IMG/VR virus record: IMGVR_UViG_3300047317_000139
DNA: 64,000 nucleotides
Origin: a virus
Taxonomy: Duplodnaviria; Heunggongvirae; Uroviricota; Caudoviricetes
Reading direction: 5' to 3' (one strand)
Positions 2,267 to 62,678 of the stretch are shown piece by piece. The notes beneath the pieces are model-generated. The model was not told where the DNA came from. It was given only the letters and a program-made list of their open reading frames with translations, and did no database searches. Every line of letters starts with the position of its first letter. Positions within the stretch are counted from its first letter, which is position 1. Made by a program: the position numbers and the translations under genes.

Positions 2267-5022
2267 TGAAGATCATCCCGACTCCCAGGTGGCGGGTGGT
2301 ACCTACGCCCGCCCCTGGGTGGTGGTCCCTGCACACCCACTCCCGGTACTCAGTCAACGACGCGATGGCCTCGGTGCCGGCGATCGTGGAGAAGGTAGCC
2401 GCGATGGGCCAGAGGGCAGTGGGTCTGCAGGACCACGGGAACATGGCCGCGAGCGTGGAGCTCTACCAGGCCTGCATGAAGGCCGGCATCACTCCGTTCC
2501 CCGGCTCAGAGATGTACTTCGTCCCCGACACCGCTGGGTACCGCGCGGTACGGGCGAGCAAGAAGGAGGGCCGGGAGAAGGCCACGATGTTCCACATGGG
2601 CGTCTCGGCGTACACCACCGAGGGCTACGAGAACCTGGTCAACCTGAGCACTCGCTCTCACCTGAACCACCACTACAAGCCACTGGTGGACTACCAGATG
2701 CTGGCCCAGCTGGCCGAGGACGGTCGCACTGCTGGGCTCGCGATAAACACCGGCTGTTACTACGGCTACCTGGCTCAGACACTCCTGCATGAAGGAGAGG
2801 ATGCGGCTCGACAGTTCCTGTACACGTTGAGTGAGTGGTTTCCCGACTCGGTGTACGTGGAGATCCAGAACCACAACATCACACACGACGAGGGGACGAA
2901 CGACGATGAGCTGGCTGATGGGCTTGTGGTACTGGCTGACCGAGTTGGTCTCCCCGTGGTCATCACTCAGGACTCGCACTACCTCGACGAAGGCGACCGT
3001 GCCGACCACGATGGGCTCAAACGCCTCGTCTCCTTCGGCCCGGACCCAGACGACGCTGTTTTCCCAGGGGACGGCTTTCACGTATGTGATGCCCAGTGGA
3101 TCGCCGACCGTCACAGTGAACGTCGCCTTGCGCGAGGAGTGGAAGGACTGGCAGATCTCCTCGGTCGCCACACACTCACGATCCCTGTCCTTGACTCTTA
3201 CTCCTACTCGGTCCCGGAGGTAGTCGACAATCCGCAGAAGGCCATGCAGGCCCGATGCGTGGCTGCTCTGGAGGGGATGTTCGCACCGAAGAAGGTGCCA
3301 CCTCGCTACGCCAACCAGCTGCTCGAAGAGTTCAACGTGATCGAGGCCAGCGGGATGGCCGGGTACATGATGCTGGTCAGTCAGGTCACCGACTGGCTGC
3401 GCACCAACGACGTGATGTTCCAGACCAGGGGCAGTGCTGCCGGCTCGCTGGTGTGCTGGACGCTGGGGATCAGCAACGTCGACCCGATCAAGTGGAACCT
3501 GCGCTTCGAGCGCTTCCTGAGCAAGGACCGGACCAAGCCTCCGGATGTTGACCTGGACGTGGCCCACGACCGGCGCGACGATCTGCTCGCGATGCTGAAC
3601 ACCCGGTTCACCGCACACCAGATCGGGTCGTGGGCCACCTACTCCCTCAACGAGACCGTGGACGTGGATGGAGAGACTCAAAGAGGGTCCCTACGGGTGA
3701 GGTACTACTCGGCCTCGGGGAAGAAGGATGACGGGGCCTCCTCCTGGGCCGAGGTGCCTGAGGCAGATCGCGCGATGCTAGTACGCCTCAGCGATCGCCA
3801 TCTGTACAAGGGCATGGGCACGAACGCCGCTGGCATCGTGCTCACCTCGACCCTGGAGGAGTTTCAGCGTCTGGTGCCGATGGCCTGGATGGCACGCAGC
3901 AACAACAAGGGTGGGTTCGTCACCCAGTACAGCAAGGACCAGATCGAGGCGCTGGGACTGGTGAAGCTCGACGCGCTCGGGAGCAAGACGCTCACCGTGC
4001 TGGACCACTGCATGCGGATGCTGGACCTGCCCATCAACCGGATCGGTGACATCGAGTACCAGGACGTGCCCACCTACAACCTGATCCGCAGCGGGTACAC
4101 CGATGGGCTGTTCCAGCTGGAGGGTCGGAGCACCCAGTGGGGTCTGAAGGACCTGAAGCCGACCTCGATCAAGGACGTGATCGCGGCGATGGCACTGTTC
4201 CGTCCGGCCACCATGAACACCGGTGCCACTCGTGCGTTCATCGAGCGCAAGTGGGGTGGCGCAGTGCCGCTGCGGCATGAGCTGATCATGAAGGCCACCA
4301 AGGACACGCACGGGATCATGCTCTACCAGGAGCAGGTGATCGACCTGCTGCGTGGGCTGGGCATGGACGCGGACAACCTGACCAGGTTCCTGAAGGCCGT
4401 GAAGGCCAGCAACAAGGACATCGGATCCGCTGGCGTGGTGATCGAGTCGTACCAGAAGTGGATCCACGAGCGCTGCGAGCAGGAGGGGATGAGCGCTGAT
4501 GACCAGAAGTTCCTCCACGACGCCATCGCCGGCTTCGCCGAGTACGGCTTCAACCGTGCTCATGCGACTGTCTACGGCATCACGGCGTACCGCGCGGCGT
4601 ATCTGGCTGCTCGTCATCCACTGCAGTACCACACTGCGCTCCTGGGCGTCGCGAGCGAGGGAGACAGCAAGAAGGAGAACCGCTACCTCAAAACCACGAA
4701 GCGACGTGGCGTACGAGTCCTCGCCCCCGAGATCAACACCTCAGGAGCCTCCTACACCGTCGATGAGCAGCGTGGAGCCATCCGTCGCGGACTCCAGTCC
4801 ATTGACGGGGTTGGGGCGATCAGCGCCGCTCGACTGGAGGCTCTCCAGCCCTTCCGGGACCTGGACGATCTGGTCGAGCGAGCCGCCGCCCAGACCGTTT
4901 CTGGACACAAGGAGTACGACGGCACTCCCGAGTCACTCACTGGTGTCCTGGGGAAGCTCTACGCCTCCGGATGCCTGACCGTACTGACCAACGTGAGGAA
5001 GATCCACGATGCACAGATGTGA
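2266..5022 (+). CDS. dnaE: DNA polymerase III alpha subunit-like replicative polymerase (compact, 918 aa, N-terminal PHP domain)
   Basis: The N-terminal WSLHTHSRYSVNDAMASV...GLQDHGNMAA...GSEMYF matches the PHP (histidinol-phosphatase-like) domain motifs of DnaE. Length and downstream conservation fit a trimmed phage DnaE. Confidence 0.8.
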   Translation: MKIIPTPRWRVVPTPAPGWWSLHTHSRYSVNDAMASVPAIVEKVAAMGQRAVGLQDHGNMAASVELYQACMKAGITPFPGSEMYFVPDTAGYRAVRASKKEGREKATMFHMGVSAYTTEGYENLVNLSTRSHLNHHYKPLVDYQMLAQLAEDGRTAGLAINTGCYYGYLAQTLLHEGEDAARQFLYTLSEWFPDSVYVEIQNHNITHDEGTNDDELADGLVVLADRVGLPVVITQDSHYLDEGDRADHDGLKRLVSFGPDPDDAVFPGDGFHVCDAQWIADRHSERRLARGVEGLADLLGRHTLTIPVLDSYSYSVPEVVDNPQKAMQARCVAALEGMFAPKKVPPRYANQLLEEFNVIEASGMAGYMMLVSQVTDWLRTNDVMFQTRGSAAGSLVCWTLGISNVDPIKWNLRFERFLSKDRTKPPDVDLDVAHDRRDDLLAMLNTRFTAHQIGSWATYSLNETVDVDGETQRGSLRVRYYSASGKKDDGASSWAEVPEADRAMLVRLSDRHLYKGMGTNAAGIVLTSTLEEFQRLVPMAWMARSNNKGGFVTQYSKDQIEALGLVKLDALGSKTLTVLDHCMRMLDLPINRIGDIEYQDVPTYNLIRSGYTDGLFQLEGRSTQWGLKDLKPTSIKDVIAAMALFRPATMNTGATRAFIERKWGGAVPLRHELIMKATKDTHGIMLYQEQVIDLLRGLGMDADNLTRFLKAVKASNKDIGSAGVVIESYQKWIHERCEQEGMSADDQKFLHDAIAGFAEYGFNRAHATVYGITAYRAAYLAARHPLQYHTALLGVASEGDSKKENRYLKTTKRRGVRVLAPEINTSGASYTVDEQRGAIRRGLQSIDGVGAISAARLEALQPFRDLDDLVERAAAQTVSGHKEYDGTPESLTGVLGKLYASGCLTVLTNVRKIHDAQM

Positions 5023-9375: not shown

Positions 9376-10332
9376 ATGGCCAACCTGCCGAGCTTCCACC
9401 ACATCCACTGCAGCTCCAGGTTCGACCGCTCAGCTGCCTCTCTGGATGCTGACATCACCGACTGGCAGACCAAGAGCTCTCTGATCACCCTCACCGAGGT
9501 GGAGGACGACCATCGGGCCTCACAGCTGCGGGCTCAGGGCTGGGGCTACTACGCCTGCAAGCTGGGCCCGTACGCCGCGGATGGTGCGATCGGCTGGGAC
9601 ACCACGAAGTGGAAGCAGCTGCACGGTGCGGTCAGGAAGCTGAGCAAGCACACCTACATGCGCGCGTACTCCAAGCGAGTCACCTACATCTACTCAGTCA
9701 CTGCAGTACTGAAGCGTGTGGACACCGGCCACAAGCTGCTGGTGAGCGTGGCCCACTTCCCAGCCCACATCGAGGGGCAGAACGGCTGGCGCACCGATCT
9801 GGAGAAGTGGAAGGCCCGCAAGGCCACCTACCTGGATGCGCTGGGTGGCTGGTCGAACCACGTGAACGACCAAGTGCGCAAGCAGCACGTGGACGCAGCC
9901 CTGCTGGTAGCTGACTGGAACCTGAACCTGAAGGAGAACTGGGTCAGGAGCACGATCATGGATCACTGGGGACCGAGCTGGCACCTGGCCTGGCAGGCGT
10001 TCCCGACCTCTGGTGGAAGCATGCACGGCGGGCCTGTAGCGCCTCTGGGAGCGCCTGGGGTGAGCAAGGGCGACCGGATCATCGACGGGAGTCTGTACCA
10101 GGGCCTGAAGGTCGACACGCCACCCAACCTGATGGCACGGGTGAGCAGCTCGGACCATCGCCCGTACCAGGAGCGGTTCACGTTCGCGGACAAGGCCGAG
10201 AACCCGATCACTGCCCCAGCCTCAGGTGACATCAAGCACGGTGATGCGTGGTGGGGCTTCGGGGACTACATGACCGATGAGATCTACCCGACCCCAGCTG
10301 CGACTGGAGACGCCGGCGGCGAGGTGCTGTGA
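9376..10332 (+). CDS. endonuclease/exonuclease/phosphatase (EEP)-family protein, paralogue 2
   Basis: FHHIHCSSRF aligns with VHVMHCSMQF of the 8080 gene. It carries ADWNLN (GDxN-like) and a C-terminal SSSDHRPY (SDHxP-like catalytic His motif). Confidence 0.5.
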   Translation: MANLPSFHHIHCSSRFDRSAASLDADITDWQTKSSLITLTEVEDDHRASQLRAQGWGYYACKLGPYAADGAIGWDTTKWKQLHGAVRKLSKHTYMRAYSKRVTYIYSVTAVLKRVDTGHKLLVSVAHFPAHIEGQNGWRTDLEKWKARKATYLDALGGWSNHVNDQVRKQHVDAALLVADWNLNLKENWVRSTIMDHWGPSWHLAWQAFPTSGGSMHGGPVAPLGAPGVSKGDRIIDGSLYQGLKVDTPPNLMARVSSSDHRPYQERFTFADKAENPITAPASGDIKHGDAWWGFGDYMTDEIYPTPAATGDAGGEVL

Positions 10333-10809: not shown

Positions 10810-10921
10810 AAGAAACCTGAAGATGGTGTCTGCGGACTATGGCCGACACGCCGAATGACGTGGTACCCCTGATGGGTCAACTGCGGGGGAGATGCCCTCG
10901 TACACGCACGGGGGAGAAACC

Positions 10922-11360
10922 CATGAACTTGCCCATCAAGTCTGCTCTGGCATCGGTAGCGAGTATCGCTGCAGTCGGAGCGTTCGCCATTCCGGCCCAT
11001 GCCGACAGCAACTCCGACTTCATCCACAAGACCGTCACTCGCTCCGCCACGCACCGGATCGCCTACGTGAAGATCACCGTGGAGTGCTCGGATGACACCG
11101 ACTCGGCTGCGCTGTCGGTGCGGCTCACCCAGGTCACGCCTGCCGGCACGGTGCAGCAGGCCACTGGAGCTCAGACCAACATCGGTGGCTTCGAGTGCAC
11201 CGGTGACCCGGAGTCGGTGACCGTGGCCGTGCGTCGTCCGACTGGTGGGTACAACTGGCAGGCCGGAACGGCTGTGGCTGACCACGCCGTGTTCGTCACG
11301 CACGACCCGAGCGGCACCTACTTCTCCTCCGCCTCACGGCGTACGGTGACTGTGAAGTAG
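10922..11360 (+). CDS. Sec-secreted protein (146 aa; signal peptide MNLPIKSALASVASIAAVGAFAIPAHA)
   Basis: The RBS gggggagaaaccc precedes the ATG. There is a clear N-terminal signal peptide with an AHA cleavage motif. The mature part is beta-rich with two Cys. The table ORF 10839 starts too early. Confidence 0.5.
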
Positions 11361-11363
11361 CCC

Positions 11364-11410
11364 CCCGGAACGGGAGGGCTCGTTACCCGAGAGACGGGCC
11401 CTCCTCCGGG
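11364..11410 (+). terminator. imperfect GC-rich hairpin downstream of the secreted-protein gene (terminator-like, no U-tract)
   Basis: Inverted repeats CCCGGA/TCCGGG and GGAGGGC/GCCCTCC enclose a short inner stem. It lies right after the stop at 11360. Confidence 0.25.
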
Positions 11411-11431
11411 AGCTCGGGACGGAGGTGAACC

Positions 11432-11524
11432 ATGAGCAACGATGCATTCCACTGGATCGTGGTGATCTCACTCATCGTGATCATCATCCTGCTGGCCCTT
11501 CCTCTGCGCACCAGGGTCAGATAG
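11432..11524 (+). CDS. small single-TM membrane peptide (30 aa, MSNDAFHWIVVISLIVIIILLALPLRTRVR)
   Basis: A GGAGGTG RBS lies 5 nt upstream. It has a hydrophobic core and a basic C-terminus, and is locally lower in GC. Confidence 0.35.
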   Translation: MSNDAFHWIVVISLIVIIILLALPLRTRVR

Positions 11525-11539
11525 GGGTACGGTCCGCAC

Positions 11540-11971
11540 ATGATCAGAAAGCTCGCGGCCGTCGTCGCCGTACTCGCTGCCATGGGGCTGACCACGCTCG
11601 GCTCCTCCACTGCTGCTCACGCGGACCCGTGTGACCACCACGGACACGGACATCCTCCGTTCTGTCCTGGACCTCCGCCTCCTCCGCCCACCCCGACTCC
11701 TGCTCCGACCTGCCACAAGCTGATCGTGGGCTCGGTCCACAACGATGTGCTGTTCGGCACCCGCTGCAACGACGCCATCTACGGGCGCGCGGGCAACGAC
11801 CGTCTGATCGGACGTCGCGGGAACGACCGCCTCAACGGTGGCCTGGGCAACGACGTCCTGCGCGGTGGCCCTGGGCGTGACGTGCTCAACGGTGGCCGGG
11901 GCAAGGATCTGTGCTTCGGGTCCAACAACGACATCTTCCGGAACTGCGAGAAGGTGTTCGTGCTCGGATGA
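11540..11971 (+). CDS. secreted protein with RTX/hemolysin-type Ca-binding nonapeptide repeats (beta-roll) and a His/Cys/Pro-rich segment
   Basis: The signal peptide is MIRKLAAVVAVLAAMGLTTLGSSTAAHA. There are five consecutive GGxGxDxLx-like repeats (GRAGNDRLI, GRRGNDRLN, GGLGNDVLR, GGPGRDVLN, GGRGKDLCF). An upstream DHHGHGHPPFCPGPPPPPP segment is also present. Confidence 0.55.
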   Translation: MIRKLAAVVAVLAAMGLTTLGSSTAAHADPCDHHGHGHPPFCPGPPPPPPTPTPAPTCHKLIVGSVHNDVLFGTRCNDAIYGRAGNDRLIGRRGNDRLNGGLGNDVLRGGPGRDVLNGGRGKDLCFGSNNDIFRNCEKVFVLG

Positions 11972-12048
11972 GCATCCTCTGGATCCTGGTGATCGTTGTC
12001 CTGGTGTTGGTCCTGGCGGGGTTCTTCAACAGCCGTCGCCGGCGCTAG
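11968..12048 (+). CDS. small single-TM membrane peptide (26 aa, MSILWILVIVVLVLVLAGFFNSRRRR)
   Basis: ATGA overlap with the stop of the RTX gene. It has a hydrophobic helix and a poly-Arg tail. Confidence 0.35.
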   Translation: MSILWILVIVVLVLVLAGFFNSRRRR

Positions 12049-12057
12049 GGTTCACCC

Positions 12058-12498
12058 ATGGCAGCCAAGAAGGTCTCGATCCCGCTGGATGAGCTCACCG
12101 ACCGACAGCTGCTGCTGTACGTCGTCCTACCCAAACTCACCACGATGGAGAACAAGATGTCGGATCTCAGCGCATCCGTAGATGACCTGAAGAACGCTGT
12201 CGACGGGGTGGCCCAGCGCCTGCTCCCGGAGATCGCCGCCCTGGAGGACGCACTCGCTGCGGCTCAGGCAGACGACGCAGACGCAGCGCAGGCAGCTGCG
12301 GATGCAGAGGCTGCGGTGGCCAACATCCGCACCGAGGTGGACCGCCTCAACGCGCTCGGGACTGACCCGAGCACGCCGGTGGACACCGAGACGCCTCCGG
12401 CAGAGCCGCCCCCGGTCGAGGTGCCCGCGGACCCGAACGCTCCGCACCCGGACAACTCGCTGCCCGGTGACCAGCCCGAGATCAACCCGTTGAGCTGA
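12058..12498 (+). CDS. hypothetical coiled-coil / Ala-Asp-rich protein (146 aa)
   Basis: ORF table; central Ala/Asp/Glu-rich helical segment and a Pro-rich C-terminus. Confidence 0.45.
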   Translation: MAAKKVSIPLDELTDRQLLLYVVLPKLTTMENKMSDLSASVDDLKNAVDGVAQRLLPEIAALEDALAAAQADDADAAQAAADAEAAVANIRTEVDRLNALGTDPSTPVDTETPPAEPPPVEVPADPNAPHPDNSLPGDQPEINPLS

Positions 12499-12502
12499 TC
12501 GC

Positions 12503-12985
12503 ATGACCCTGATGGGGGTCGACCTGGGCATCCACAAGGTCGCCTGCTTCGTGCCTGGGGGCCGACCTGATGCTCAGATTCTGGAGAGCAGCGTGGGCTC
12601 CCGCGCGCTGCAGCTGTGTGAGCTGAGCTCGTTCGTGCATGACATGGCCGGCCTCCATCAGGTAGATCAGGTGTGGATCGAGGACACCCTGATCGGGAAC
12701 AACCGCAAGTACTCGATCCAGCTGACAGAGGTCAGGGGAGCTGTGATGGCTGCCCTGGCCCTGCATGCTGACGTTCGTCTGGTGAACGTCGCCACCTGGA
12801 AGTCGCAGGTGCTCGGGGATGGTCATGCCTCGAAAGATGCGGTGAGGGACTACATCCATGTCACTCACCCTGACTATGCTGCGCTCTGTGGGAGCAACCA
12901 GGACCTCTACGACGCCTGCAGCATCTCCCTCTACGGACTCCAGATCAGAGAACGGGCCTCCGGGCTCCGCCTGGTCTCTGGATGA
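12503..12985 (+). CDS. ruvC: RuvC-like Holliday junction resolvase
   Basis: The N-terminal MGVDLGIHKVACFV matches the RuvC GIDPG-like first motif. WIEDTLIGNN and a C-terminal DACSISLYG (DAxxxAL-like) add support. The size is right, and phage RuvC-like resolvases are common. Confidence 0.55.
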   Translation: MTLMGVDLGIHKVACFVPGGRPDAQILESSVGSRALQLCELSSFVHDMAGLHQVDQVWIEDTLIGNNRKYSIQLTEVRGAVMAALALHADVRLVNVATWKSQVLGDGHASKDAVRDYIHVTHPDYAALCGSNQDLYDACSISLYGLQIRERASGLRLVSG

Positions 12986-13010
12986 CTGGCTCGATGAGAC
13001 CGGGCAGCGG

Positions 13011-13472
13011 ATGCCCGACGAAGACTCCGAGCGATGGGTCAGCTACAACATCTCCGACCTCTACCCCGAGTGGCAGCTGCAAGCACACTGCGCCGGCGTA
13101 GGGGTCTCGTACTACTTCGGGGATGAGGAAGAGCAGCCCACCATGTCGATCCGACAGGTGCGAGCTGCAACTAAGCTCTGCGACGTCTGCCCAGTCTTCA
13201 CAGAGTGCCTGACGTGGGCGTTGTCCACGCGCGAGGAGTACGGAGTCTGGGCAGGCACCTCAGGCCGAGTGCGTCGCCGGATCTTCAAGATGATGGACAA
13301 TGGCGAGACCACGGTCCAAGACGTGGTGGAGGAGTTCCGTAATGGACGAGGTCACACCTATCGAATCGGCGAAGCGACGCCCACGAGCTCGGTCAGCCGG
13401 CTTGGCCAAGGAGATCGAGGACAAGGCGCGCGAGGCCTACCAGATGCAGATCGCGGGGAAGCTGCCATCTGA
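13011..13472 (+). CDS. whiB: WhiB-like (Wbl) Fe-S transcription regulator
   Basis: Four Cys in WQLQAHCAG...CDVCPVFTECLTWAL followed by GVWAGTS (GVWGG motif) and a basic GRVRRRI patch. The start is uncertain: 13011 is the first in-frame ATG after the ruvC stop, and the table ORF begins at 12858 inside ruvC. Confidence 0.65.
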   Translation: MPDEDSERWVSYNISDLYPEWQLQAHCAGVGVSYYFGDEEEQPTMSIRQVRAATKLCDVCPVFTECLTWALSTREEYGVWAGTSGRVRRRIFKMMDNGETTVQDVVEEFRNGRGHTYRIGEATPTSSVSRLGQGDRGQGARGLPDADRGEAAI

Positions 13473-14224: not shown

Positions 14225-14559
14225 TGGAGAGCGCCTGGGGTATCGACCACGGTGAGGTGAGCAAGGGATGGGGTGGAGACGTAGCCAGGAAGACGGCCAA
14301 CGCGGCCACCAAGGCGCGCTTGAAGGCCCCCAAGACTCCTCGCTCGAACGCGAGAAACGACTACTACCAGCGTGGGACGCGGAAGTTCCGGAACCTGACT
14401 GAGCGCAGCCACCGCAACGATGAGACTGGCCAGCACAAGATCTCTCCCATGCGTTCTCGGGCCTTCGCACCGCTGGAGCGGCAGTATCCGGCCTACGGTG
14501 GTCGCACCGGGTCGAACTGGGAGTTCAACGGGAACAAGCGCGTGAGGAAGGCCTTCTGA
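14224..14559 (+). CDS. basic protein carrying the N-terminal MESAWGIDHGEVSK motif (family member 1)
   Basis: ATG at 14224 (or GTG at 14221) overlaps the upstream stop. The protein is very basic and probably disordered. The N-terminal peptide is shared with the proteins at 34933, 40038 and 40340. Confidence 0.5.
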   Translation: MESAWGIDHGEVSKGWGGDVARKTANAATKARLKAPKTPRSNARNDYYQRGTRKFRNLTERSHRNDETGQHKISPMRSRAFAPLERQYPAYGGRTGSNWEFNGNKRVRKAF

Positions 14560-15236
14560 TGGCGAACGTCGTACGGCTGGTCAACGGCGGGTCGATCCAG
14601 GTCCGCACTGGAGTCATCCAGGGAATCGGACCTCAGGGCCCGCGTGGTGTGGCCGGTCCTCAGGGGCCTGATGGTCCGGCTGGTCCGATCGGTGACCCTG
14701 GTCCGCAGGGACAGATCCTGCAGCTCCAGGGGATGAGCTCGGTGTCGTCGAACAACCCACTGTCTGCAGGCGCGGACACGGTGCTGGCCTTCGGCTCGGT
14801 GAGCTACGACGACCTGTCCGCTTTCACCTCCACCTCCAACATCACCCTGACCGCTGCTGGGGACTACCTGCTGTCGACCTGGGTGCGCTTCGACGCAGCC
14901 ACGGCCACCAAGCGCGAGGTGTGGTTCCAGACCGGCGGCTCGACCATCGCCCGGAAGTCGGTGATGGCTGACACCGGGATCTTCTACGTGGACCTGGCGA
15001 TGCCGTTCCGAGCTGCTGGTGGGGAAGTGGTCAATGTGCACGCACTCTCCGCCGTGGCCACGGGCATCTCCATGGGCTCGGTCTCGGTGACCCGTGTTGG
15101 GTCTGGGCCACCGGGACCACAGGGGCCTGTTGGACCTCAGGGACCGATCGGCGCGACTGGCGCTGCTGGTCCGACTGGTCCTGCGGGCACGGCGAACGCC
15201 GGGTTCACCTCGTACGCCCTGCTGCTTCCCCACTAG
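14559..15236 (+). CDS. collagen-like repeat protein (Gly-X-Y tracts at both ends, globular middle)
   Basis: GPQGPRGVAGPQGPDGPAGPIGDPGPQGQ at the N-terminus and GPPGPQGPVGPQGPIGATGAAGPTGPAG at the C-terminus. Confidence 0.6.
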   Translation: MANVVRLVNGGSIQVRTGVIQGIGPQGPRGVAGPQGPDGPAGPIGDPGPQGQILQLQGMSSVSSNNPLSAGADTVLAFGSVSYDDLSAFTSTSNITLTAAGDYLLSTWVRFDAATATKREVWFQTGGSTIARKSVMADTGIFYVDLAMPFRAAGGEVVNVHALSAVATGISMGSVSVTRVGSGPPGPQGPVGPQGPIGATGAAGPTGPAGTANAGFTSYALLLPH

Positions 15237-15245: not shown

Positions 15246-18200
15246 ATGACGTTCGACCAGGCGCAGTCTCCGCGTCTGGGCCAGCGCACTCCGGTCGAGT
15301 CCACCTACGTCCGGATGTTCTCCGGGACAGAGATCCCGGAGGCTGCCTGGCCCGGTCAGCTCATCTTCCGCTCGGACGAGAAGATCCTGCAGGTCTACGA
15401 CGGTGAGGCTGAGGCCTGGACCGATGTCGCGGGTGGAGTGGCTGGTCAGCTCACCTTCATCGGTGCCACTCAGCCGGTAGCGCAGTCGGTCGGGGACACC
15501 TGGTACGACTCCGACGACAACTACAAGCTCTACGTCTGGGATGGCAGCTCCTGGAACGTGGCGGTGGCGGGAGCTGTGGCCGGCACGGTCACGGAGTACT
15601 CGGTCAGCTCCAGTGAGACGGTGGCTCCCACCACTGGCTGGTCCACGTCCACGCCTACTCGCGCGCCTGGGACGTTCATCTGGGTGCGCACCACCAGCAC
15701 CCGCATCGACGGTACGAGCACCACCACCAACCCGGCCCTGATGACGGGCAACACGGGAGCGACCGGCCCGCAGGGATCAGCTGGGCCGCAGGGCATCCCA
15801 GGTCCTACCGGACCGAACGGCCAGCCGCTCTACACCTGGACCAAGTACGCGGACACGCCGACCACTGGGATGAGCGACAGCCCGACCGGGAAGACCTACC
15901 TCGGCCTGTCCTACAACCAACCCAACCCCACCGAGTCCAACGTCTACTCCGACTACCAGTGGTCGCTGATCGTGGGACCGCAGGGTGTGCCTGGACCAAC
16001 TGGTGCTGACGGTCAGCCGACCTACACCTGGATCAAGTACGGCACCAGCTCCACGGGCGCTGGGATCAACGACGATCCGACTGGCATGACCTACATGGGC
16101 ATCGCCTACAACAAGACCACGCCCACCGAGTCCACCAACCCCGCGCTGTACGAGTGGAGCCTGATCCAGGGTCCGCCTGGGGCGAACGCGGCCACCATCA
16201 CGCTCACCTCCACCACTCAGATCCTCACCTCTCCCTCGGGCGGAGGTGCGACCACGCCGGCGACTGCCACGGTCACTGGCACTGCGGTGAACACCACGAT
16301 CTCGGTCTGGGACTACAGCGTGGACAGCGGGGCCTTCTCTACCTCACTGCCTGCGGGCGTGTCGCGGGCCGGGAACGTGGTCACCATCACCGGTGCCACG
16401 ATGACCGCCAACACGATCGCGGTCCGGATGGGGAACGGCACGATCGCGGACACGCTCACGGTGGCCAAGGTCTACAACGGTGCGACTGGAGCCACGGGCA
16501 ACCCGGGCAGCACAGGTGGCACGGGTTCACCTGGTGCCGACGCCTACACGGTGCTGCTGACCAACGAGGCGGCGGTCTTCCCGGGCACGGTCACCGCAGC
16601 CATCGCTGGCAGCACCACCAGCAGCGTGCTGGCCTACAAGGGCGCGACCCGCGTCGCTGCCACGATCGGCACGATCACTGGTCAGCAGCCTGGGCTGACC
16701 ACGGCGATCACCAACAACGGGACCACCACTGCGGGGATCACGATCACCGTCACCACCTCGTTGACCCTGGCCGGCACTCTGGTCATCCCGATCACGGTGG
16801 ATGGGATCACCTTCAACAAGCAGTTCGCCTGGACGGTCAGCTTCACTGGCGCTACTGGCAACACCGGAAGTACTGGCCCCACTGGTCCGACTGGCGGCAC
16901 TGGCTCGCCCGGAGTCAGCGTCACCGCGATGACCCCGTACTTCGCCACGGTCACCTACGGAGCAGCAGCTCCCACCCAGCCCACCAACCAGGCGACTCCG
17001 CCTGCGCCCTGGGCCACTCTCGAACCGGCCTACACGGTGGGCACCGAGCTGTACCGCACCGACAAGTCCACTTACTCCGACGCGCACTACAGCTACTCGG
17101 TGGTCACCAAGGTCTCTTCGTACGCCGCTGTCGCCACCGACAACCTGCCGCCCACCAGCTCGCCCACACCCGAGGTGATCGCTGGGATCGGTGCGTTCTT
17201 CCTGCGCTGGCCGGCGATCACCAACCACGACCCGGTGGCCTACGAGGTGCACGTCAGCGACACCTCTGGGTTCACCCCAGACACCACTCCTGGCCCTACC
17301 AGCACCACGCGCTACACCACTACCACAGGGTTCTCGGTCACGGTGCGCAACCTGATCCCGGTCGACCAGGCCACTGGACTGCCCACCGCGTTCAACTACG
17401 GCCAGCCGTACTACTTCAAGATCCTGTCCCGAGACTCTGACGGCCCCTGCTCCGCGGGCGCGGGTGCGCAGGTAACTGGCACGATGCAGCCGATCACCGG
17501 CGAGGACATCACGGTGGGCTCGGTGCTGGCGGAGCACATCGTGGGTGGCACGCTGACCGGAGACCTGTTCAGTGGCCAGGTCTTCTTGGGGTCCACGATC
17601 AGTACCGGCGCGCTGAACCCGGATGGCACGATCTCGGGCGCACGGGTAGAGCTCAGCCCGCTGGGGCTGTTCGTCTACGACCAGACCAACACCCAGATCA
17701 CCGGCTTCCCACTGGACCCGTCTCAGGACGCTTTCGTCAAGCAGGCGCACTTCGACATGCTGTCGGCGGACGTGCAGAACAACTTCACCATGCACGGCAC
17801 CAACAACCAGATCGCCACCGAGGCCGAGCTGACGCTGGCCGCTGGGGTCACGGCTCCGACCGCGCAGCCGACCCTGGCTGCGGTCTACGACACGGTGCAG
17901 CTGGACCGGACCAACGCCTACCCGCCGCACAGCCCAGCGACCGACTACAACCTGGGCACCTTCGCGCTCGATCCCTCCCAGATCACCTCGATCGCCTGGA
18001 TCACTGCCTACGGCGGCTACTGGGCGGTGATCCAGCAGAAGTCCGCCGGGTTCCGGATCTGGCGGTTCAACGCCAATGGCACGGTCAAGGCCAACCCGGG
18101 CACCGGTCGACCCTGGCTCGACGACTGGAACGGGCGGACCAACTGCTTCGTCTGCTACGACCCGGTGGGCGGGGACCTGGTGACCCTGTTCCAGCAGGGC

Positions 18201-21200
18201 ACCGGGTACTTCCTGTTCGGCTACACCCCGACCGGGACCAGCATCATCAACTTCATCCCGGCCAGCTGGATCCTGGACTCGGCCACCCGTCCGCCCGGGC
18301 TCGCGTACGACGCTGCTGCCAGCCGCTACATCATGTTCCAGTCCAACGGCGGCGCGAACGGCACGCTGCACGTACGTCGGTTCCACGGTGTGGTCGGGTC
18401 GGGCGGACTGTGGGGCACAGCAGTCTCGGACAGCACTACGCAGAGCGCTGCTGGTGGAGGCCTGTCCCAGCGGCTGCACGGGCTGGTCTACGGCACCCAG
18501 GTCGGTGGGGCGAACCGGTACGTCATCGACGCCGACACCTACCTGCAGAACTACATCTTCGACACCTCGTGGGTGCAGAAGAACACCGATGGTGCCTACG
18601 AGCAGTGGTCCAAGCCGGCTGCTGCTCGCGGGTTCTGCCACAACGGCTCCCAGTTCGTCTCGGTGGACGCGACCGGGAAGATCACCTTCTACACGAACTG
18701 GAACTGGCCCCAGTCCAACTCGACCATCTACGTCGGGGCCTCGGCCATCGCCACCAGGCCCGCTCCGGACTACGAGACTCCGGTTGGCGCACTGGCCAGC
18801 ATCAGCCAGGCGCGACGGGCCAAGCTGATGATCACGATGCCCGAGACCGGGGACACGGGGGCGACCGCCTCTCCGAACCAGTGGGGTTTGTACTACCAGC
18901 GCAGCGCCACCGCTCTCACGGGCGGTTCGGGGATGAAGCAGATCGGGCTGATCGGTGCTGCATCAACTCCGTCCAGCGTCACGATCACTGCTGACCCCAC
19001 CGGAGCCGCGCCGGCGTTCGGCCTGGACGGGAAGCCCGACGCGAACTACTCCAGCTTCCCGGGCGCGAACCCGGCGCAGCTGACCAGCTACGCCTTCGAC
19101 GGCGTAGGCCCGCTCATCCAGCTGAACGGGGATGGCTCAGGACGGCTGGGATCGGCGTACTGGGACACCAACGGGAACTGGACCGGGATCGGCAGCGGTG
19201 GTGCGACCACGCTGGATACCTACACCCTCGCTGCCACAGCGGGCCTGACGCTGACCAATACCGACACCGACATCCCCGGGATGTCCACGTCGGTATCCGT
19301 GGGAGGGCCCTCGGATCGGTTCCTGGTGGTAGCCGCGTTCGACGCGCGTACTGCGGGAGCAGGCGACAACTCGGTGATGTCAGGGAAGCTGGTGGTCGAC
19401 GGCACGGCCCAGGTTGCGGTAGCGACCTTCAACAGCGGTAGCACGGCCAACCTTCGTGCCACGGTGCACCAGAGCTGGGTGATCAGCGGGATGGCCGCGG
19501 GCAACCACACGTTCAAGGCTCAGGCCTCGCAGGTCAACAGTGGCACGATCACCCTCAGCACGGTCCACACCAGGATGGTGATCGTCAAGCTGGTCGGCCC
19601 ACCCGGACCGAAGGGCGACAAGGGCGACACCGGAGCTACCGGATCTCAGGGCGCGACCGGAGCTACTGGTCCGACTGGAGCCACTGGTGGCCAGGGACCG
19701 ATCGGTAACACCGGACCACAGGGTGCTACTGGAGCTCAGGGGCCACAGGGTGCGACTGGAGCTCAGGGCATCCAGGGTCCGACTGGTAACACCGGTGCTC
19801 AGGGCACGGCTGGTGAGAAGTGGTTCTCGGGTGCCGGCGCTCCCTCGGGCGCGACCGGGGCAGTCAACGACTGGGACCTGGACACCACTGCCGGCGACAT
19901 CTACGAGAAGACCGGGGCCTCGACCTGGACCCTGCGCGGGAACATCAAGGGCCCACAGGGCACCACGGGAGCGACCGGTAGCCAGGGCATCCAGGGACCC
20001 ATCGGCAACACCGGTGCCACGGGTCAGGCCGAGGGCTGGTGGGGTGGTGCTGGAGCTCCGTCTGGAGCCACGGGAGCGGTCGGGGACTGGTACCTGAACC
20101 AGACCAACGGGGATGTCTACGAGAAGACGGGAGCGAGCGCCTGGACGCTGCGCACCAACATCACCGGCCCCGCTGGTCCTACCGGTGCTCAGGGCCCGCC
20201 AGGAGGCTCCTCAGCGGGTTCTGTGAACGTGGTGGACGAGACCACGCTGGTGGTCTCCAACGCCACCCAGATGTCTTTCAAGGGCACCGGCGTCACTGCG
20301 ACTGCTGGAGTGGCTGGCGAGGCCGTGGTCACCATCCCCACTCCTGCTGCGCTGCCTCCGAACGGGGCTGCAGGTGGAGACCTGGGTGGGACCTACCCGA
20401 ACCCCACGGTGCCTGCCCTGACGACCAAGGTGAACACCTCGGCGGTGGGCTCGGCCAGCGGTGTCGCCTCCCTGGACGGCAGCTCCAAGGTCCCGATCGC
20501 TCAGATCCCCACCGGACAGACCTCGACTACGGTCCCGCTCGGCAACGACACCAGGTTCACTGACGCCCGGACTCCGACCGCGCACGCGGCCAGCCACGGC
20601 TCTGGGCAGGCAGACGCGGTTCTGCTGAACGCCAACCAGATCAGTGCCGGGATCATGGGCGTGAACCGGCTGGGCAACAACCCGCAGGTCACCACCTACC
20701 TGAGAGCGGCTGGAACCTCGGGCGCTCCTGACTGGGTGTCGACGGCCACGGCGAAGACCGATCTGGGAGCTGGAGCAGCCAGCGGCCTGGCCACTCTGGA
20801 CGCCACTACCCGAGTACCGCCGGCGCAGCTCCCGCTGATGGGTGGCGGGAACCTGCTGGTCAACTCCAACTTCATCGAGACCACAGGGCTAGCGGCCAGC
20901 AACTTCGGCAGTGCTGCGATCACCCAGGAGACCACCACCACCTGGCGCAACGGGCGCGCGATGCGGGTCACCTCGTCCAACGCCAGCAACGCCTTCGGGA
21001 TCGGCAGCTACGCAGTGGTCAGCGAGACGGTCGCAGCTGGGAACCGGTTCGCTCCGAACACCGCCTACACGTTCACGATGTGGGTCTACAACCCGACTGC
21101 GAGTGGCACTGCGCAGGTCGCCATCATCACCACCGGCGCTGGGATCACCACCAACCCGAGTGCTACTACCACGGTCAAAGACACCTGGACTCGGCTGTCG

Positions 21201-22112
21201 GTCTCGTTCATCACCGCTGCCAGTGGCACCTTCACACTGCGGTCCGGCAGTGAGGCCAACCCCGCAGTCGGGCTGTACTACATCGTCGGTGCCTGGCAGG
21301 CCGAGCTCGGTGAGGTCCCGACCTCGTACGCCCCCAGGGCCACTGAGCTGGTCGTGGGATCCGGACTGGCGCTGACCGGGAGCACGCTCTCGATCGGGGT
21401 CGGTGGAGTCACCTCGAACATGATCAACGATGGCGAGATCGTGGCAGCTGACATCAACGCCTCGCTGAAGTCGCCAGCGGCTGGTGTCGAGGGGCTGCGC
21501 TCGCTGGGCACCGGATCCACCCAGGCAGCACCAGGGAACGACTCACGGTTCGTGCCGACCGGCTGCATGATGATGTGGCCGACCGCCACCCCGCCGGCTG
21601 GCTGGATCCTCTGTGATGGTGGATCTACGGCGAGCTACCCCGCGCTGGCAGCTGTGGTCGGCGCGAACGTTCCGGACATGCGAGACAAGTTCGCACAAGG
21701 TGTTGGACCGCTGAACGCGCTCAACGCTACGGGTGGCCAGGCTGGTATGCCTGGTCACACCCACGACATCGGGGACCACTACCACAACGCGACCTCCTCC
21801 CCGGGGTTTCCGAACTCCTCGACCGGTGCCCTGAACGCCAACAACGACGCCGGTGCCGTGCACGTCCACCCCATCGACATCGGCAACACGACCGGCTCTT
21901 CCACGTCTTCTCTGCAGAAGACCAACGGGACGATCGCCAACACGGGCGCGACCGGCCCGTACAACCCGACCAACTCCGGCGGTCACACCCACGCCATCAG
22001 CGGGCGCACGGCGTCCTCGCAGATGCAGAACACCGGAAGCACTGGTAGCGGCAACACATCCAACGAGAACCGGCCCCCGTTCCTGACCGTCAACTTCATC
22101 ATCAAGACGTGA
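15246..22112 (+). CDS. giant tail fibre protein (2288 aa) with collagen-like triple-helix tracts, internal tandem domain duplications and a C-terminal phage tail-collar domain
   Basis: The C-terminus MMWPTATPPAGWILCDGGSTASYPALAAVVGANVPDMRDKF...GHTHD... matches the phage tail-collar fold. A long G-X-Y tract runs from about 19600 to 20240 (GPPGPKGDKGDTGATGSQGATGATG...). There are repeated ~55-60-aa modules. Confidence 0.8.
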   Translation: MTFDQAQSPRLGQRTPVESTYVRMFSGTEIPEAAWPGQLIFRSDEKILQVYDGEAEAWTDVAGGVAGQLTFIGATQPVAQSVGDTWYDSDDNYKLYVWDGSSWNVAVAGAVAGTVTEYSVSSSETVAPTTGWSTSTPTRAPGTFIWVRTTSTRIDGTSTTTNPALMTGNTGATGPQGSAGPQGIPGPTGPNGQPLYTWTKYADTPTTGMSDSPTGKTYLGLSYNQPNPTESNVYSDYQWSLIVGPQGVPGPTGADGQPTYTWIKYGTSSTGAGINDDPTGMTYMGIAYNKTTPTESTNPALYEWSLIQGPPGANAATITLTSTTQILTSPSGGGATTPATATVTGTAVNTTISVWDYSVDSGAFSTSLPAGVSRAGNVVTITGATMTANTIAVRMGNGTIADTLTVAKVYNGATGATGNPGSTGGTGSPGADAYTVLLTNEAAVFPGTVTAAIAGSTTSSVLAYKGATRVAATIGTITGQQPGLTTAITNNGTTTAGITITVTTSLTLAGTLVIPITVDGITFNKQFAWTVSFTGATGNTGSTGPTGPTGGTGSPGVSVTAMTPYFATVTYGAAAPTQPTNQATPPAPWATLEPAYTVGTELYRTDKSTYSDAHYSYSVVTKVSSYAAVATDNLPPTSSPTPEVIAGIGAFFLRWPAITNHDPVAYEVHVSDTSGFTPDTTPGPTSTTRYTTTTGFSVTVRNLIPVDQATGLPTAFNYGQPYYFKILSRDSDGPCSAGAGAQVTGTMQPITGEDITVGSVLAEHIVGGTLTGDLFSGQVFLGSTISTGALNPDGTISGARVELSPLGLFVYDQTNTQITGFPLDPSQDAFVKQAHFDMLSADVQNNFTMHGTNNQIATEAELTLAAGVTAPTAQPTLAAVYDTVQLDRTNAYPPHSPATDYNLGTFALDPSQITSIAWITAYGGYWAVIQQKSAGFRIWRFNANGTVKANPGTGRPWLDDWNGRTNCFVCYDPVGGDLVTLFQQGTGYFLFGYTPTGTSIINFIPASWILDSATRPPGLAYDAAASRYIMFQSNGGANGTLHVRRFHGVVGSGGLWGTAVSDSTTQSAAGGGLSQRLHGLVYGTQVGGANRYVIDADTYLQNYIFDTSWVQKNTDGAYEQWSKPAAARGFCHNGSQFVSVDATGKITFYTNWNWPQSNSTIYVGASAIATRPAPDYETPVGALASISQARRAKLMITMPETGDTGATASPNQWGLYYQRSATALTGGSGMKQIGLIGAASTPSSVTITADPTGAAPAFGLDGKPDANYSSFPGANPAQLTSYAFDGVGPLIQLNGDGSGRLGSAYWDTNGNWTGIGSGGATTLDTYTLAATAGLTLTNTDTDIPGMSTSVSVGGPSDRFLVVAAFDARTAGAGDNSVMSGKLVVDGTAQVAVATFNSGSTANLRATVHQSWVISGMAAGNHTFKAQASQVNSGTITLSTVHTRMVIVKLVGPPGPKGDKGDTGATGSQGATGATGPTGATGGQGPIGNTGPQGATGAQGPQGATGAQGIQGPTGNTGAQGTAGEKWFSGAGAPSGATGAVNDWDLDTTAGDIYEKTGASTWTLRGNIKGPQGTTGATGSQGIQGPIGNTGATGQAEGWWGGAGAPSGATGAVGDWYLNQTNGDVYEKTGASAWTLRTNITGPAGPTGAQGPPGGSSAGSVNVVDETTLVVSNATQMSFKGTGVTATAGVAGEAVVTIPTPAALPPNGAAGGDLGGTYPNPTVPALTTKVNTSAVGSASGVASLDGSSKVPIAQIPTGQTSTTVPLGNDTRFTDARTPTAHAASHGSGQADAVLLNANQISAGIMGVNRLGNNPQVTTYLRAAGTSGAPDWVSTATAKTDLGAGAASGLATLDATTRVPPAQLPLMGGGNLLVNSNFIETTGLAASNFGSAAITQETTTTWRNGRAMRVTSSNASNAFGIGSYAVVSETVAAGNRFAPNTAYTFTMWVYNPTASGTAQVAIITTGAGITTNPSATTTVKDTWTRLSVSFITAASGTFTLRSGSEANPAVGLYYIVGAWQAELGEVPTSYAPRATELVVGSGLALTGSTLSIGVGGVTSNMINDGEIVAADINASLKSPAAGVEGLRSLGTGSTQAAPGNDSRFVPTGCMMMWPTATPPAGWILCDGGSTASYPALAAVVGANVPDMRDKFAQGVGPLNALNATGGQAGMPGHTHDIGDHYHNATSSPGFPNSSTGALNANNDAGAVHVHPIDIGNTTGSSTSSLQKTNGTIANTGATGPYNPTNSGGHTHAISGRTASSQMQNTGSTGSGNTSNENRPPFLTVNFIIKT

Positions 22113-62534: not shown

Positions 62535-62678
62535 TCAGCCCGCGCGATGCGAGCTGTCTTCCATGTCGGGGTCGTAGTCGCCCATCTCGTTCTTGGCCTT
62601 GCGGGTGAAGTAGGCCTCCATGAACACGCAGGTGATCACGGAGGAGCCCACTGCGGTGAGTACTGTCTGCAGCCACAT
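62535..62678 (-). CDS. small single-TM membrane peptide (47 aa, MWLQTVLTAVGSSVITCVFMEAYFTRKAKNEMGDYDPDMEDSSHRAG)
   Basis: AAGGAGG RBS. The ATG is adjacent to the lipoprotein stop. The frame was checked against the table ORFs. Coordinates are approximate. Confidence 0.35.
   Translation of the reverse strand: MWLQTVLTAVGSSVITCVFMEAYFTRKAKNEMGDYDPDMEDSSHRAG

Follow-up and report, generated by a model that had tools for sequence, protein, structure and literature searches.

The stretch of DNA analysed here (the window; 64,000 nucleotides of IMG/VR record IMGVR_UViG_3300047317_000139) is an actinophage genome. Its phage origin, stated in the original prediction, is borne out by genes for a DNA polymerase, RuvC, WhiB, terminase, portal and tape-measure protein, and we take WhiB to be an actinobacterial marker. 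An open reading frame of 143 codons on the plus strand, starting with ATG as first described, encodes a small protein with RTX repeats and is flanked by genes for two tiny membrane peptides. The features of this three-gene cassette are:

11359..11414, plus strand: GC-rich hairpin, lying 3' of the upstream 173-aa ORF and 5' of the three-gene cassette
11432..11524, plus strand: gene for a 30-aa single-pass membrane peptide, MSNDAFHWIVVISLIVIIILLALPLRTRVR, directly upstream of the RTX gene
11540..11971, plus strand: coding sequence of the 143-aa, putatively exported beta-roll protein; ATG start, stop codon 11969-11971 (from the ORF list, GC3, Pfam and homologues)
11540..11623, plus strand: signal peptide, residues 1-28, as read from the sequence (MIRK, 17-residue hydrophobic core, AHA/DP)
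11624..11665, plus strand: loop rich in His, Asp and Gly and closed by a Cys pair (C-x10-C), residues 29-42, DPCDHHGHGHPPFC; most relatives keep C-x(7-10)-C and the His enrichment
11666..11710, plus strand: Pro/Thr-rich linker, residues 43-57, PGPPPPPPTPTPAPT, likewise read from the sequence (pLDDT <75)
11711..11917, plus strand: beta-roll, residues 58-126, with N-cap Cys58, seven nonapeptide repeats (G64-F126) and Cys76 in a turn
11918..11968, plus strand: C-terminal cap, residues 127-143, which completes the invariant Cys125...Cys136-Glu137 motif (GGxGxDxC-x10-CE)
11968..12048, plus strand: gene for a 26-aa single-pass membrane peptide, MSILWILVIVVLVLVLAGFFNSRRRR, whose ATG overlaps the RTX stop codon (ATGA)

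The reading frame 11540..11971 has a GC3 of 0.78, typical for coding frames in this window of 63-65% GC, and its full-length homologues share 44-57% identity; GC3, the profile score given below and the conserved homologues rule out both a spurious ORF and an opposite-strand gene. The protein begins with MIRK (+2), a 17-residue hydrophobic core and an AHA/DP site (-3,-1) after residue 28, which would leave a mature protein of only 115 residues. AlphaFold models a helix at residues 5-19 of the signal peptide region with low pLDDT, and the N-terminus carries neither a twin-Arg motif nor a lipobox. The string DHHGHGHPPFCPGPPPPPPTP, placed after the signal peptide in the original prediction, corresponds to residues 32-52, and the six Cys counted there are residues 31, 42, 58, 76, 125 and 136.

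Genomic setting of the RTX gene

The upstream peptide is 93-96% identical at loci L011, L013 and L026 and 73% identical at L003-L005. Downstream, peptides made up of M-x-x-x-W, a hydrophobic run and a basic tail lie 3' of the RTX gene at L001, L003, L011, L012, L013, L025 and L027, which span two different phage backbones, and L021 has an MSND-type peptide in the same position. Membrane peptides are missing beside about half of the family loci, and tiny membrane peptides are in any case common in actinophage genomes. Across the family, the RTX gene has several settings: early regions by RuvC or ParB, the vicinity of peptidase genes (M23 or M15), the end of a tail operon, and the neighbourhood of genes for other secreted proteins.

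The neighbouring ORFs of 318, 145, 173 and 146 aa gave no significant Pfam, NCBIfam, PADLOC or PDB match, and a suspected kinship between the 318-aa neighbour and the ORFs beside the L021 RTX gene was unsupported by BLASTP. Neither an integrase nor ABC transporter or membrane-fusion genes were recognised among the window ORFs scanned, and a scan for promoters and terminators around the RTX gene found none. The hairpin at 11359..11414 folds as RNA at -38.7 kcal/mol (z = -1.7), marginally better than its shuffles, has no T-tract and falls within a stretch of about 600 bp that is missing from L011; it is possibly a transcript boundary, for which this is weak evidence.

Beta-roll repeats and their conservation

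In the model, residues 58-143 take up a parallel beta-roll that is built from seven RTX nonapeptides and whose ladder of Ca2+-ligand Asp is complete. The original prediction had listed five consecutive GGxGxD repeats; the repeats themselves hold, and the count was loose, as there are seven repeats of nine residues, of which only R5-R7 are strict GGxGxD, R3-R4 read GRxGND and R1-R2 are degenerate. The repeat Asp residues fall at positions 69, 78, 87, 96, 105, 114 and 123, at nine-residue spacing, with an eighth (D131) in the cap. Profile detection, the check first proposed for this protein, succeeds clearly: Pfam PF00353 (HemolysinCabind) matches in three stretches with 84 bits against a cut-off of 23 (E = 6.4e-24). 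In a phmmer search, the CyaA RTX domain is the best PDB sequence match (1e-31). AlphaFold models residues 58-143 at a pLDDT of about 97 with strands every nine residues, and the best Foldseek matches of the model are all beta-rolls (CyaA block V and AlgE R-modules; TM about 0.5, rmsd 1.5-2.4 Å). The RTX beta-roll assignment is thus backed by a profile, a PDB sequence search, a structural model and a structural search.

In an alignment of ten sequences, the Asp residues at 69, 78, 87, 96, 105, 114, 123 and 131 are invariant. Within the repeat register, position 6 has an entropy of 0.00; entropy is low at positions 1, 4 and 8 and high at surface positions 2, 3, 5 and 9. With the ligand ladder fully conserved, the Ca2+ sites appear to be kept and Ca2+ binding is predicted. 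The window roll has a pI of 9.1 and a net charge of +3 before Ca2+ is counted, as against a pI of 4.1-4.7 for generic RTX proteins; the rolls of family members that lack the loop are acidic. Cytoplasmic Ca2+ is below 100 nM and RTX repeats fold after export (PMC3034196), and their folding requires C-terminal capping (PMC5618222).

Paired cysteines, export and the His-rich loop

Residues C125, D131, C136 and E137 are invariant in the family alignment, and the spacing of the cap Cys pair is 11 in all 23 members compared. The number of Cys is even (2, 4, 6 or 8) in 22 of the 23, and the single odd member has its extra Cys within a lipobox-like SVGC, a motif carried by the L041 variant. The turn Cys (C76) is found only alongside a Cys just ahead of the roll. 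A26 and A28 are invariant or nearly so across the family, in agreement with the signal peptide that had been proposed; n, h and c regions with an AxA site are present and conserved, as are paired Cys in the mature protein. The window protein is probably exported by a Sec-type route, because of the conserved AxA signal peptide, the Pro/Thr linker, the even number of Cys in all but one of the 23 members and the lipobox variant.

The His/Cys segment, also noted at the outset, proved to be a family feature and not a quirk of this protein, as relatives have Cys-closed loops rich in His and Asp, of the types DPCDHxGxGxPPFC or HDHxCDNxxHHxxHHC. The His composition is kept and the individual positions are not (H36 and H38 are Q, N or T in close relatives). 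In L035 and L039 a C-x(8-10)-PPPFC loop is placed at the C-terminus instead, and in P0008, P0010 and L028 the loop is absent altogether. The linker is replaced by a collagen-like/TVTAT linker in L017, and P0008 and P0010 have none. Searching IMG/VR for the exact loop motif with a degenerate DNA pattern returned three loci, all on known family contigs, and a protein query with the 60 N-terminal residues found no other proteins bearing the loop and no alternative context for it.

Distribution of the family

Members of the family occur at 24 viral loci of IMG/VR and on several phage contigs from metagenomes. Megablast, blastn and tblastn searches of 50,697 GenBank phage records returned no match, even at E = 10, although masking of low-complexity sequence probably removed most of the query. 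PHROG holds no significant family (the best match, a 'tail protein' at E = 0.015, spans the Gly-rich repeats), and a BFVD search returned one beta-roll; absence from cultured phages therefore leans more on PHROG and BFVD than on the BLAST searches. Besides the RTX repeat, the window protein has no Pfam or PHROG match, and PADLOC returned none for it. The view that RTX proteins are rare in phages accordingly stands for cultured phages (GenBank, PHROG and BFVD); it fails for uncultured phages, as the family recurs on their soil-type contigs.

A pattern scan of cellular genome contigs found at least 80 generic RTX loci (best E = 9e-19). Among the best 80 listed, the sole cap-like motif is in an Actinomycetota MAG, within a protein of 444 aa, and none of the 80 encodes a small capped protein. 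Absence from cellular genomes, judged among the matches listed, is suggestive, and on that basis the small loop-linker-roll architecture is found on phage contigs only. Searching 1.84 billion representatives with a profile of the family alignment gave 264,021 matches, of which the best 150 are all multi-repeat RTX giants of 2,400-8,000 aa; these swamped the search, which gives no estimate of family size. The phage-borne, positively charged version of the beta-roll belongs to an undescribed family with a fold that is itself well known.

Module shuffling and divergence

The window loop is 75% identical to that of L011, while the window roll is 68% identical to that of P0001; loop and roll modules are shuffled across the family. 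Against L011, the closest relative, the roll and the 26-aa peptide gene form a divergence trough of 46-70% nucleotide identity between flanking genes of roughly 70-100%. At the protein level, identity to L011 is 92% for RuvC, 96% for the 30-aa peptide and 54-58% for the RTX protein. On account of the varied gene settings, the module shuffling and the divergence trough, we regard the gene as accessory (moron-like) and mobile in character.

Comparison with known beta-roll and exported phage proteins

The best structural match is block V of CyaA from Bordetella pertussis (TM about 0.5, rmsd 1.5-1.6 Å over about 76 residues), a type I RTX protein with which the phage protein has in common the tandem GGxGxDxUx Ca2+-binding parallel beta-roll. 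From this likeness the phage protein would be expected to fold only after export and in a cap-dependent manner (PMC3034196, PMC5618222). Type I RTX proteins have an uncleaved C-terminal signal, a large capping region and an acidic roll, whereas the phage protein has an N-terminal, predicted cleavable Sec-type signal, 17 residues past the last repeat with a predicted Cys-Cys staple in place of the large cap, and a basic roll (pI 9.1). In contrast to CyaA, it has no pore-forming, acylation or enzyme domain, and it is phage-encoded in a Gram-positive setting.

Three established classes were rejected. A strict RTX protein, that is, a type I substrate, is contradicted by the missing C-terminal signal, the lack of ABC/MFP genes in the scanned window ORFs and a roll that is not acidic. 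An RTX pore-forming toxin of the HlyA/CyaA type does not fit 143 residues without such a domain (NCBIfam RTX_toxin, 51 bits against a cut-off of 1000). Serralysin proteases and family I.3 lipases share the repeat and the fold in their C-terminal beta-rolls, but their matches are confined to the repeats (NCBIfam Zn_serralysin, 43 bits against a cut-off of 500) and the phage protein is without a catalytic domain.

Similar in size are the R-modules of the Azotobacter vinelandii mannuronan C5-epimerases AlgE4 and AlgE6, small stand-alone beta-rolls that rank among the top five Foldseek matches (TM 0.39-0.44, rmsd 2.4-2.7 Å; sequence E = 1e-8). R-modules bind the anionic polymer alginate and offer a model for the beta-roll as a polymer-binding module; by analogy, the phage protein may bind a polymer too. 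They are, however, joined to a catalytic A-module, exported by Gram-negative bacteria and without the signal peptide, disulfide cap, His loop and Pro linker. The small exported exclusion and receptor-masking proteins Ltp of Streptococcus phage TP-J34 and Llp of T5, which have a signal peptide or lipobox and act at the external side of the membrane of the infected or lysogenic cell, resemble the phage protein by analogy only, with no relationship in sequence or fold. Within Actinobacteria, RTX-like proteins without type I secretion genes have been described (Linhartová et al. 2010, PMC3034196), and the phage protein likewise combines RTX repeats with the lack of type I secretion. Lastly, the Cys...Cys-Glu ending is also present in database matches of 160-250 aa (P0015, P0022-24, P0028, P0033 and P0050), which suggests that these RTX-like proteins share their cap type with the phage family; the larger GGxGxDxC...CE proteins exceed the phage protein in size and have different N-terminal domains.

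Proposed role and alternatives

We propose, with roughly even confidence, that this accessory phage gene encodes an exported, Ca2+-folded, disulfide-stapled beta-roll that serves as a binding module at the cell envelope. The chain would cross the membrane unfolded via Sec and be cleaved after AHA28. Folding would take place only outside the cell, where Ca2+ is present, a step proposed because cytoplasmic Ca2+ lies below 100 nM (PMC3034196). Three disulfides may then lock the fold, C31-C42 in the His-rich loop, C58-C76 at the N-end of the roll and C125-C136 in the C-terminal cap, pairings proposed from Cys parity and co-occurrence. The Cys-stapled cap would stand in for the bulky C-terminal region that caps type I RTX proteins and directs their secretion, and the His-rich loop would be held on a Pro/Thr stalk. 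The Ca2+-loaded roll is expected to be strongly cationic with variable surface positions, and it is this charge and variability that lead us to suggest a role as binding module at the infected cell's envelope, where binding to anionic wall or membrane components might alter the cell surface. Cationic binding cannot serve as a mechanism for the whole family, because the loop-less members have acidic rolls.

From the analogy with other exported phage proteins and the cationic surface, we infer that the outcome could be exclusion of superinfecting phages or masking of a receptor. The 26-aa and 30-aa membrane peptides, which are inherited along with the RTX gene, may take part; pairing of the gene with such peptides is seen on different backbones. 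A bolder version, which we hold as doubtful, is that the loop-linker-roll proteins and their co-inherited tiny membrane peptide make up a phage-specific, fast-diversifying cassette for extracellular specificity. The roll would coat anionic wall polymers or a membrane receptor and block adsorption or DNA entry by competitors, or shield progeny from cell debris, and swaps of the roll would set which competitors are excluded. If true, this would be a new class of superinfection exclusion and the first function assigned to a viral beta-roll.

The position of the L021 and L028 RTX genes beside endolysin-like genes fits a role in lysis equally well. In that role the cationic roll and the holin-like peptides would weaken or permeabilise the envelope late in infection, or tune endolysin access or timing. 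The gene order at L021 is RTX gene, MSND-type membrane peptide and Peptidase_M23 gene (E = 9e-20), the L028 gene overlaps a Peptidase_M15_4 gene (E = 2e-13), and those of L032, L035 and L039 lie amid small multi-TM holin-like ORFs; in the window itself, two single-pass peptides flank the gene, one of them translationally coupled. The cassette of the window lineage, however, sits amid early and DNA-metabolism genes (DNA polymerase, RuvC and WhiB) with no recognisable lysin nearby, the gene lies inside an apparent structural operon in L006, L019 and L023 and adjoins ParB in L001 and L012, and single-pass peptides of 26-30 aa are small for holins. As an account of the protein, we consider lysis association unlikely.

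Less probable still is a role in metal or Ca2+ handling, in which the loop would bind Zn, Cu or Ni and the roll Ca2+, for surface capture or buffering that might, for example, deprive competitor phages of the Ca2+ needed for adsorption. His is enriched in two versions of the loop, with 1-5 His per pre-roll segment (loop plus linker) of 24-45 residues, and the eight Asp are invariant; yet the His positions drift, as described for H36 and H38, and P0008, P0010 and L028 do without the loop. Moreover, with five or six Ca2+ sites of low affinity, one molecule would buffer little, and Ca2+ is structural in known beta-rolls (PMC3034196, PMC5618222).

We rate as very improbable an RTX-type adhesin or a bacteriocin-like or toxin-like conversion gene that benefits the host by acting on other cells or surfaces. 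Beta-roll domains are common to adhesins, bacteriocins and toxins (PMC3034196), and a variable surface with module shuffling would also suit target diversification. Against this, 115 mature residues hold no effector, pore-forming or long adhesin region, the RTX_toxin score is far below its cut-off (51 bits against 1000), the gene sits within lytic-cycle operons, and the window ORFs scanned include no recognisable integrase, which leaves lysogenic conversion unsupported.

That the protein is not exported, with its N-terminus an uncleaved anchor or irrelevant and the product intracellular or part of the virion (tail or decoration), is hardly to be expected: the weak PHROG 'tail protein' match (E = 0.015) and the position of the gene in or after apparent tail genes at L010 and L006-type loci are in its favour, but that match is non-significant and spans Gly-rich repeats, the AxA site, even Cys counts, Pro/Thr linker and lipobox variant point outside the cytoplasm, and beta-rolls are unfolded at cytoplasmic Ca2+ levels (PMC3034196).

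Implications

The domain assignment is clear, and the proposed role is probably to change the surface of the infected cell. RTX beta-rolls are textbook features of Gram-negative proteins exported by type I systems. The family described here is predicted to bring this Ca2+-gated fold to Sec-exported proteins encoded by phages of Gram-positive bacteria with high GC; a staple of two Cys would replace the large C-terminal cap and the repeat region is basic instead of acidic. Should the proposed role be confirmed, the protein would offer a beta-roll that is compact, minimised by nature, locked by disulfides and some 85 residues long, of interest for the engineering of Ca2+-switchable scaffolds. Phages would also gain a further type of exported accessory protein, and the variability of its roll points to a part in conflict between phage and host or between phages.

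The RTX gene and its repeats

The RTX protein is encoded by the following reading frame:

11540–11971 (+): RTX gene, ATG start, 143 aa

Its GC3 (0.78) resembles that of other plus-strand genes (window GC 63–65%), and its status as a real gene is well supported. The product reads, in order, MIRKLAAVVAVLAAMGLTTLGSSTAAHA, a dividing mark, DPCDHHGHGHPPFC, PGPPPPPPTPTPAPT, CHKLIV, seven repeats (GSVHNDVLF, GTRCNDAIY, GRAGNDRLI, GRRGNDRLN, GGLGNDVLR, GGPGRDVLN and GGRGKDLCF) and GSNNDIFRNCEKVFVLG. The string quoted in the original prediction, six cysteines (31, 42, 58, 76, 125 and 136) and the repeats were all found in this frame. Five consecutive GGxGxD units had been proposed; repeats of this type are present, but only three of the seven are strict, the others being GRxGND (two) or degenerate (two), all in a strict nine-residue register. 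Profile search detected the repeats as Pfam HemolysinCabind (84 bits, E = 6.4e-24; cut-off 23), so the prediction withstood the refuting condition set for it, that profiles would miss the repeats. We judge the original finding correct and its interpretation supported. In a phmmer search of PDB sequences, the CyaA RTX domain (1e-31) was followed by lipases, AlgE R-modules and serralysins, while NCBIfam matches (RTX toxin, serralysin and others) came from the repeats only and were far below cut-offs.

Eight aspartates (69, 78, 87, 96, 105, 114, 123 and 131) are invariant in a 10-sequence family alignment, as are the glycines at repeat positions 1 and 4, C125, C136 and E137. When the columns of 11 ungapped rolls (RTX repeat regions) are grouped by repeat register, entropy falls to 0.00 at position 6, where the Ca2+-ligand Asp lies, stays low at 1 (Gly), 4 (Gly) and 8 (core hydrophobic), and is high at 2, 3, 5 and 9. 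Such a pattern marks a Ca2+-binding scaffold that is kept while its surface is left free. That the protein is a beta-roll keeping its Ca2+ ligands is well supported. AlphaFold2, run with the same alignment, modelled residues 58–143 at pLDDT ~97, with short strands at 61–63, 70–72, 79–81 and onward to 115–117 followed by a three-strand cap; confidence was low for the signal peptide, loop and linker, as expected of flexible parts. The leading Foldseek matches in the PDB were beta-rolls: CyaA block V (TM 0.47–0.50, r.m.s.d. 1.5–1.6 Å), AlgE6 R-modules and the Pseudomonas MIS38 lipase.

Cysteines, loop and roll charge

We compared the protein with related loci on viral and metagenome phage contigs (L numbers) and homologous proteins from the database search (P numbers). 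The cysteine count is 2, 4, 6 or 8 in 22 of 23 family members, the one odd count being in L041 (5887–6267), whose extra Cys lies in a lipobox-like SVGC within the signal peptide. The C-terminal pair is spaced by 11 in every member, and the second-turn Cys (GTRCND) occurs only where another accompanies it, either shortly before the roll (window, P0001, P0007, P0008 and L024) or in a later turn (P0013). From this parity, fixed spacing and pairing we infer three disulfides, probably C31–C42, C58–C76 and C125–C136. The 17 residues after the last repeat carry the invariant Cys...Cys-Glu motif, which we read as a likely covalent substitute for a C-terminal cap. Larger RTX-like proteins that the database search matched share this ending, which may be a general way of capping beta-rolls exported by Sec.

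RTX proteins as defined by Linhartová et al. combine type I export, through an uncleaved C-terminal signal, with acidic Ca2+-binding repeats, which remain unfolded until export because cytoplasmic Ca2+ is below 100 nM; the six Actinobacteria with RTX genes covered by that review lacked type I components (PMC3034196). In contrast, the window protein has a predicted N-terminal Sec-type signal and a basic roll (pI 9.1, net +3 before Ca2+), and its Cys...Cys-Glu segment stands where CyaA block V has a C-terminal capping group required for folding (PMC5618222). That it is neither a type I substrate nor a toxin is well supported.

The N-terminal loop takes several forms (DPCDHxGxGxPPFC, HDHxCDNGEHHGDHHC, RDHDCDRGRHHHEC and DKPGCTGDRHKC), in all of which two Cys close the loop and His and Asp are usually abundant; in IMG/VR, the exact motif was found only on contigs carrying the family. 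The loop is absent from P0008, P0010 and L028, and in L035 (5920–6480) and L039 (5640–6137) a C-x(8-10)-PPPFC version lies C-terminal to the roll, behind a Pro-rich stretch; the loop is therefore a module in its own right, carried on a flexible stalk. Linker composition differs too: it is Pro/Thr-rich in the window and collagen-like (GPxGPxG) with TVTAT repeats in L017 (RTX ORF ~2360–2932); L017/L018/L022, L041, L035 and L039 are architectural variants of the family. Roll charge and loop presence are largely coupled: loop-bearing relatives mostly have basic rolls (pI 8–11; exception L012, 5.4) and loop-less members acidic ones (pI ~4.1–4.4; exceptions P0010, 9.0, and L028, 5.5), with generic RTX proteins at pI 4.1–4.7.

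Genome setting

Features of the window surrounding the RTX gene

2266–5022: DNA polymerase
9376–10332 (+): 318-aa ORF
10839–11360 (+): 173-aa ORF
11432–11524 (+): 30-aa single-pass membrane peptide, basic C-terminus
11968–12048 (+): 26-aa single-pass membrane peptide, basic C-terminus; ATG overlaps the RTX stop codon (ATGA)
12503–12985 (+): RuvC-like resolvase
12858–13472 (+): WhiB-like regulator
14559–15236 (+): 225-aa collagen-repeat protein
15246–22112 (+): 2,288-aa ORF
25072–26574: terminase
26596–28455: portal
44051–49744: 1,897-aa ORF whose size and position, the only basis for the assignment, fit a tape-measure protein
62678–63604 (−): SPFH/Band 7 domain protein

It is well supported that the window is a phage genome and the RTX gene phage-borne. 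No deposited phage has a portal more than 48% identical to that of the window, the top match being an unannotated metagenomic record and the best named ones Arthrobacter phages (~46–47%); no DNA-level match of the window to deposited phages was found. Both the WhiB-like gene and the GC content suggest that the host belongs to Actinomycetota. The window ORFs scanned included no recognisable integrase. The listed coordinates give a 128-nt overlap between the RuvC-like and WhiB-like ORFs; WhiB homology begins at residue ~66, so the true WhiB-like start is probably further downstream.

The RTX gene sits within the early/DNA-metabolism block, flanked on both sides by the tiny membrane peptide genes, both kept across related phage contigs. 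Directly beside this cassette, the 173-aa ORF has its own Sec-type signal peptide (…AIPAHA/DSNSD), no Pfam, PHROG, NCBIfam or PADLOC match and, with a hairpin at 11359–11414, forms a ~600-bp insertion relative to L011, the closest relative, that is missing from all related loci; its product is predicted to be a second exported accessory protein. Every window-type locus keeps the 318-aa ORF (52–75% identity) just upstream of its cassette; the C-terminal SSSDHRPY of this ORF recalls endonuclease/exonuclease/phosphatase enzymes, with no match in Pfam, NCBIfam or PDB sequences. The 2,288-aa ORF (PHROG matches collagen-like, tail-fibre-like and 'host range') and the preceding 225-aa ORF lie upstream of terminase, an unusual site for a giant fibre-like protein. 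The SPFH/Band 7 protein (Pfam 1.8e-09), in the right-end minus-strand block, belongs to a PHROG family annotated 'lipoprotein'.

Distribution and mobility of the family

Among 5.8 billion proteins, 56 matched the RTX protein; the nine best full-length matches (117–158 aa, mostly 40–57% identity) share its architecture, and all retrievable contexts of these relatives are phage-like. L001 is a contig of 59 kb that carries terminase and Mtd_N genes, and L003–L005 have the gene order of the window. The gene lies within an apparent structural operon in L006–L009, ends an apparent tail operon, adjoining ERF, in L010, and adjoins secreted GH99/metallophosphatase and CAP-domain proteins in L024. A pattern scan of IMG/VR gave 37 loci, 24 with the small capped architecture, while in 185,579 species genomes the 80 top-scoring loci encode generic RTX proteins, only one of these 80 having a cap-like motif (within a 444-aa protein). 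GenBank phages gave no match, although masking weakened the tblastn part; PHROG gave no significant family, and BFVD held one viral beta-roll. Set against the 24 IMG/VR loci, this shows the fold to be rare in cultured phages, while the family recurs in metagenome contigs of uncultured ones.

Between the window and L011, protein identity is 92% for RuvC, 96% for the 30-aa peptide, 80% for a 146-aa ORF, 75% for the 318-aa ORF and 54–58% for the RTX protein. Sliding nucleotide comparison shows a trough (46–70% identity, ~11640 to 12100) over the roll-coding part and the 26-aa peptide gene, with flanks at roughly 70–100%. The window loop is nearest L011 (75%) and P0002 (69%) and the roll nearest P0001 (68%) and L012 (65%), so modules have been exchanged. 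On two unrelated backbones, RuvC type and ParB type (L001 and L012), the RTX gene is followed by peptides of the 26-aa type (M-x-x-x-W, hydrophobic run, basic tail); MSND-type peptides lie beside the gene in the window type and on its other side in L021, and other lineages are without such peptides. Genomic position varies widely among loci, and the gene behaves like a mobile accessory gene.

Proposed role

Sequence logic supports a scheme in which the protein would be exported by Sec and cleaved after A28, three disulfides would form, and folding of the roll would be gated by Ca2+ outside the cell, where the roll, we infer, serves as a binding module on the envelope. Its likely role, in our view, is to modify the cell surface for superinfection exclusion or receptor masking. 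Exported small phage proteins of known role are mostly of this type (for example, Ltp and Llp), and the roll, with Ca2+ bound, would carry a strong positive charge and could attach to anionic wall polymers, a precedent being the AlgE R-modules, which bind alginate. The variable surface, the roll segment swapped between close relatives and one lipoprotein-like variant also argue for this role.

The main rival is a role in lysis, consistent with the holin-like peptides beside the gene and with lysin-adjacent placements: in L021 (5932–8017) an MSND-type membrane peptide and then a Peptidase_M23 gene follow the RTX gene, and in L028 (5893–6956) a Peptidase_M15_4 gene comes immediately after it, which hints at a lysis-cassette link in some lineages. 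Metal sequestration is less likely; the composition of the loop makes metal binding plausible, but individual His positions vary among family members. Also less likely are a secreted factor benefiting the host and a role inside the cell or in the virion.

The beta-roll domain is already known; what is new, and without described relatives, is this phage-borne architecture, which combines predicted Sec export, a basic roll with a predicted disulfide cap, a stalk-borne His-rich loop and an association with micro-peptides.
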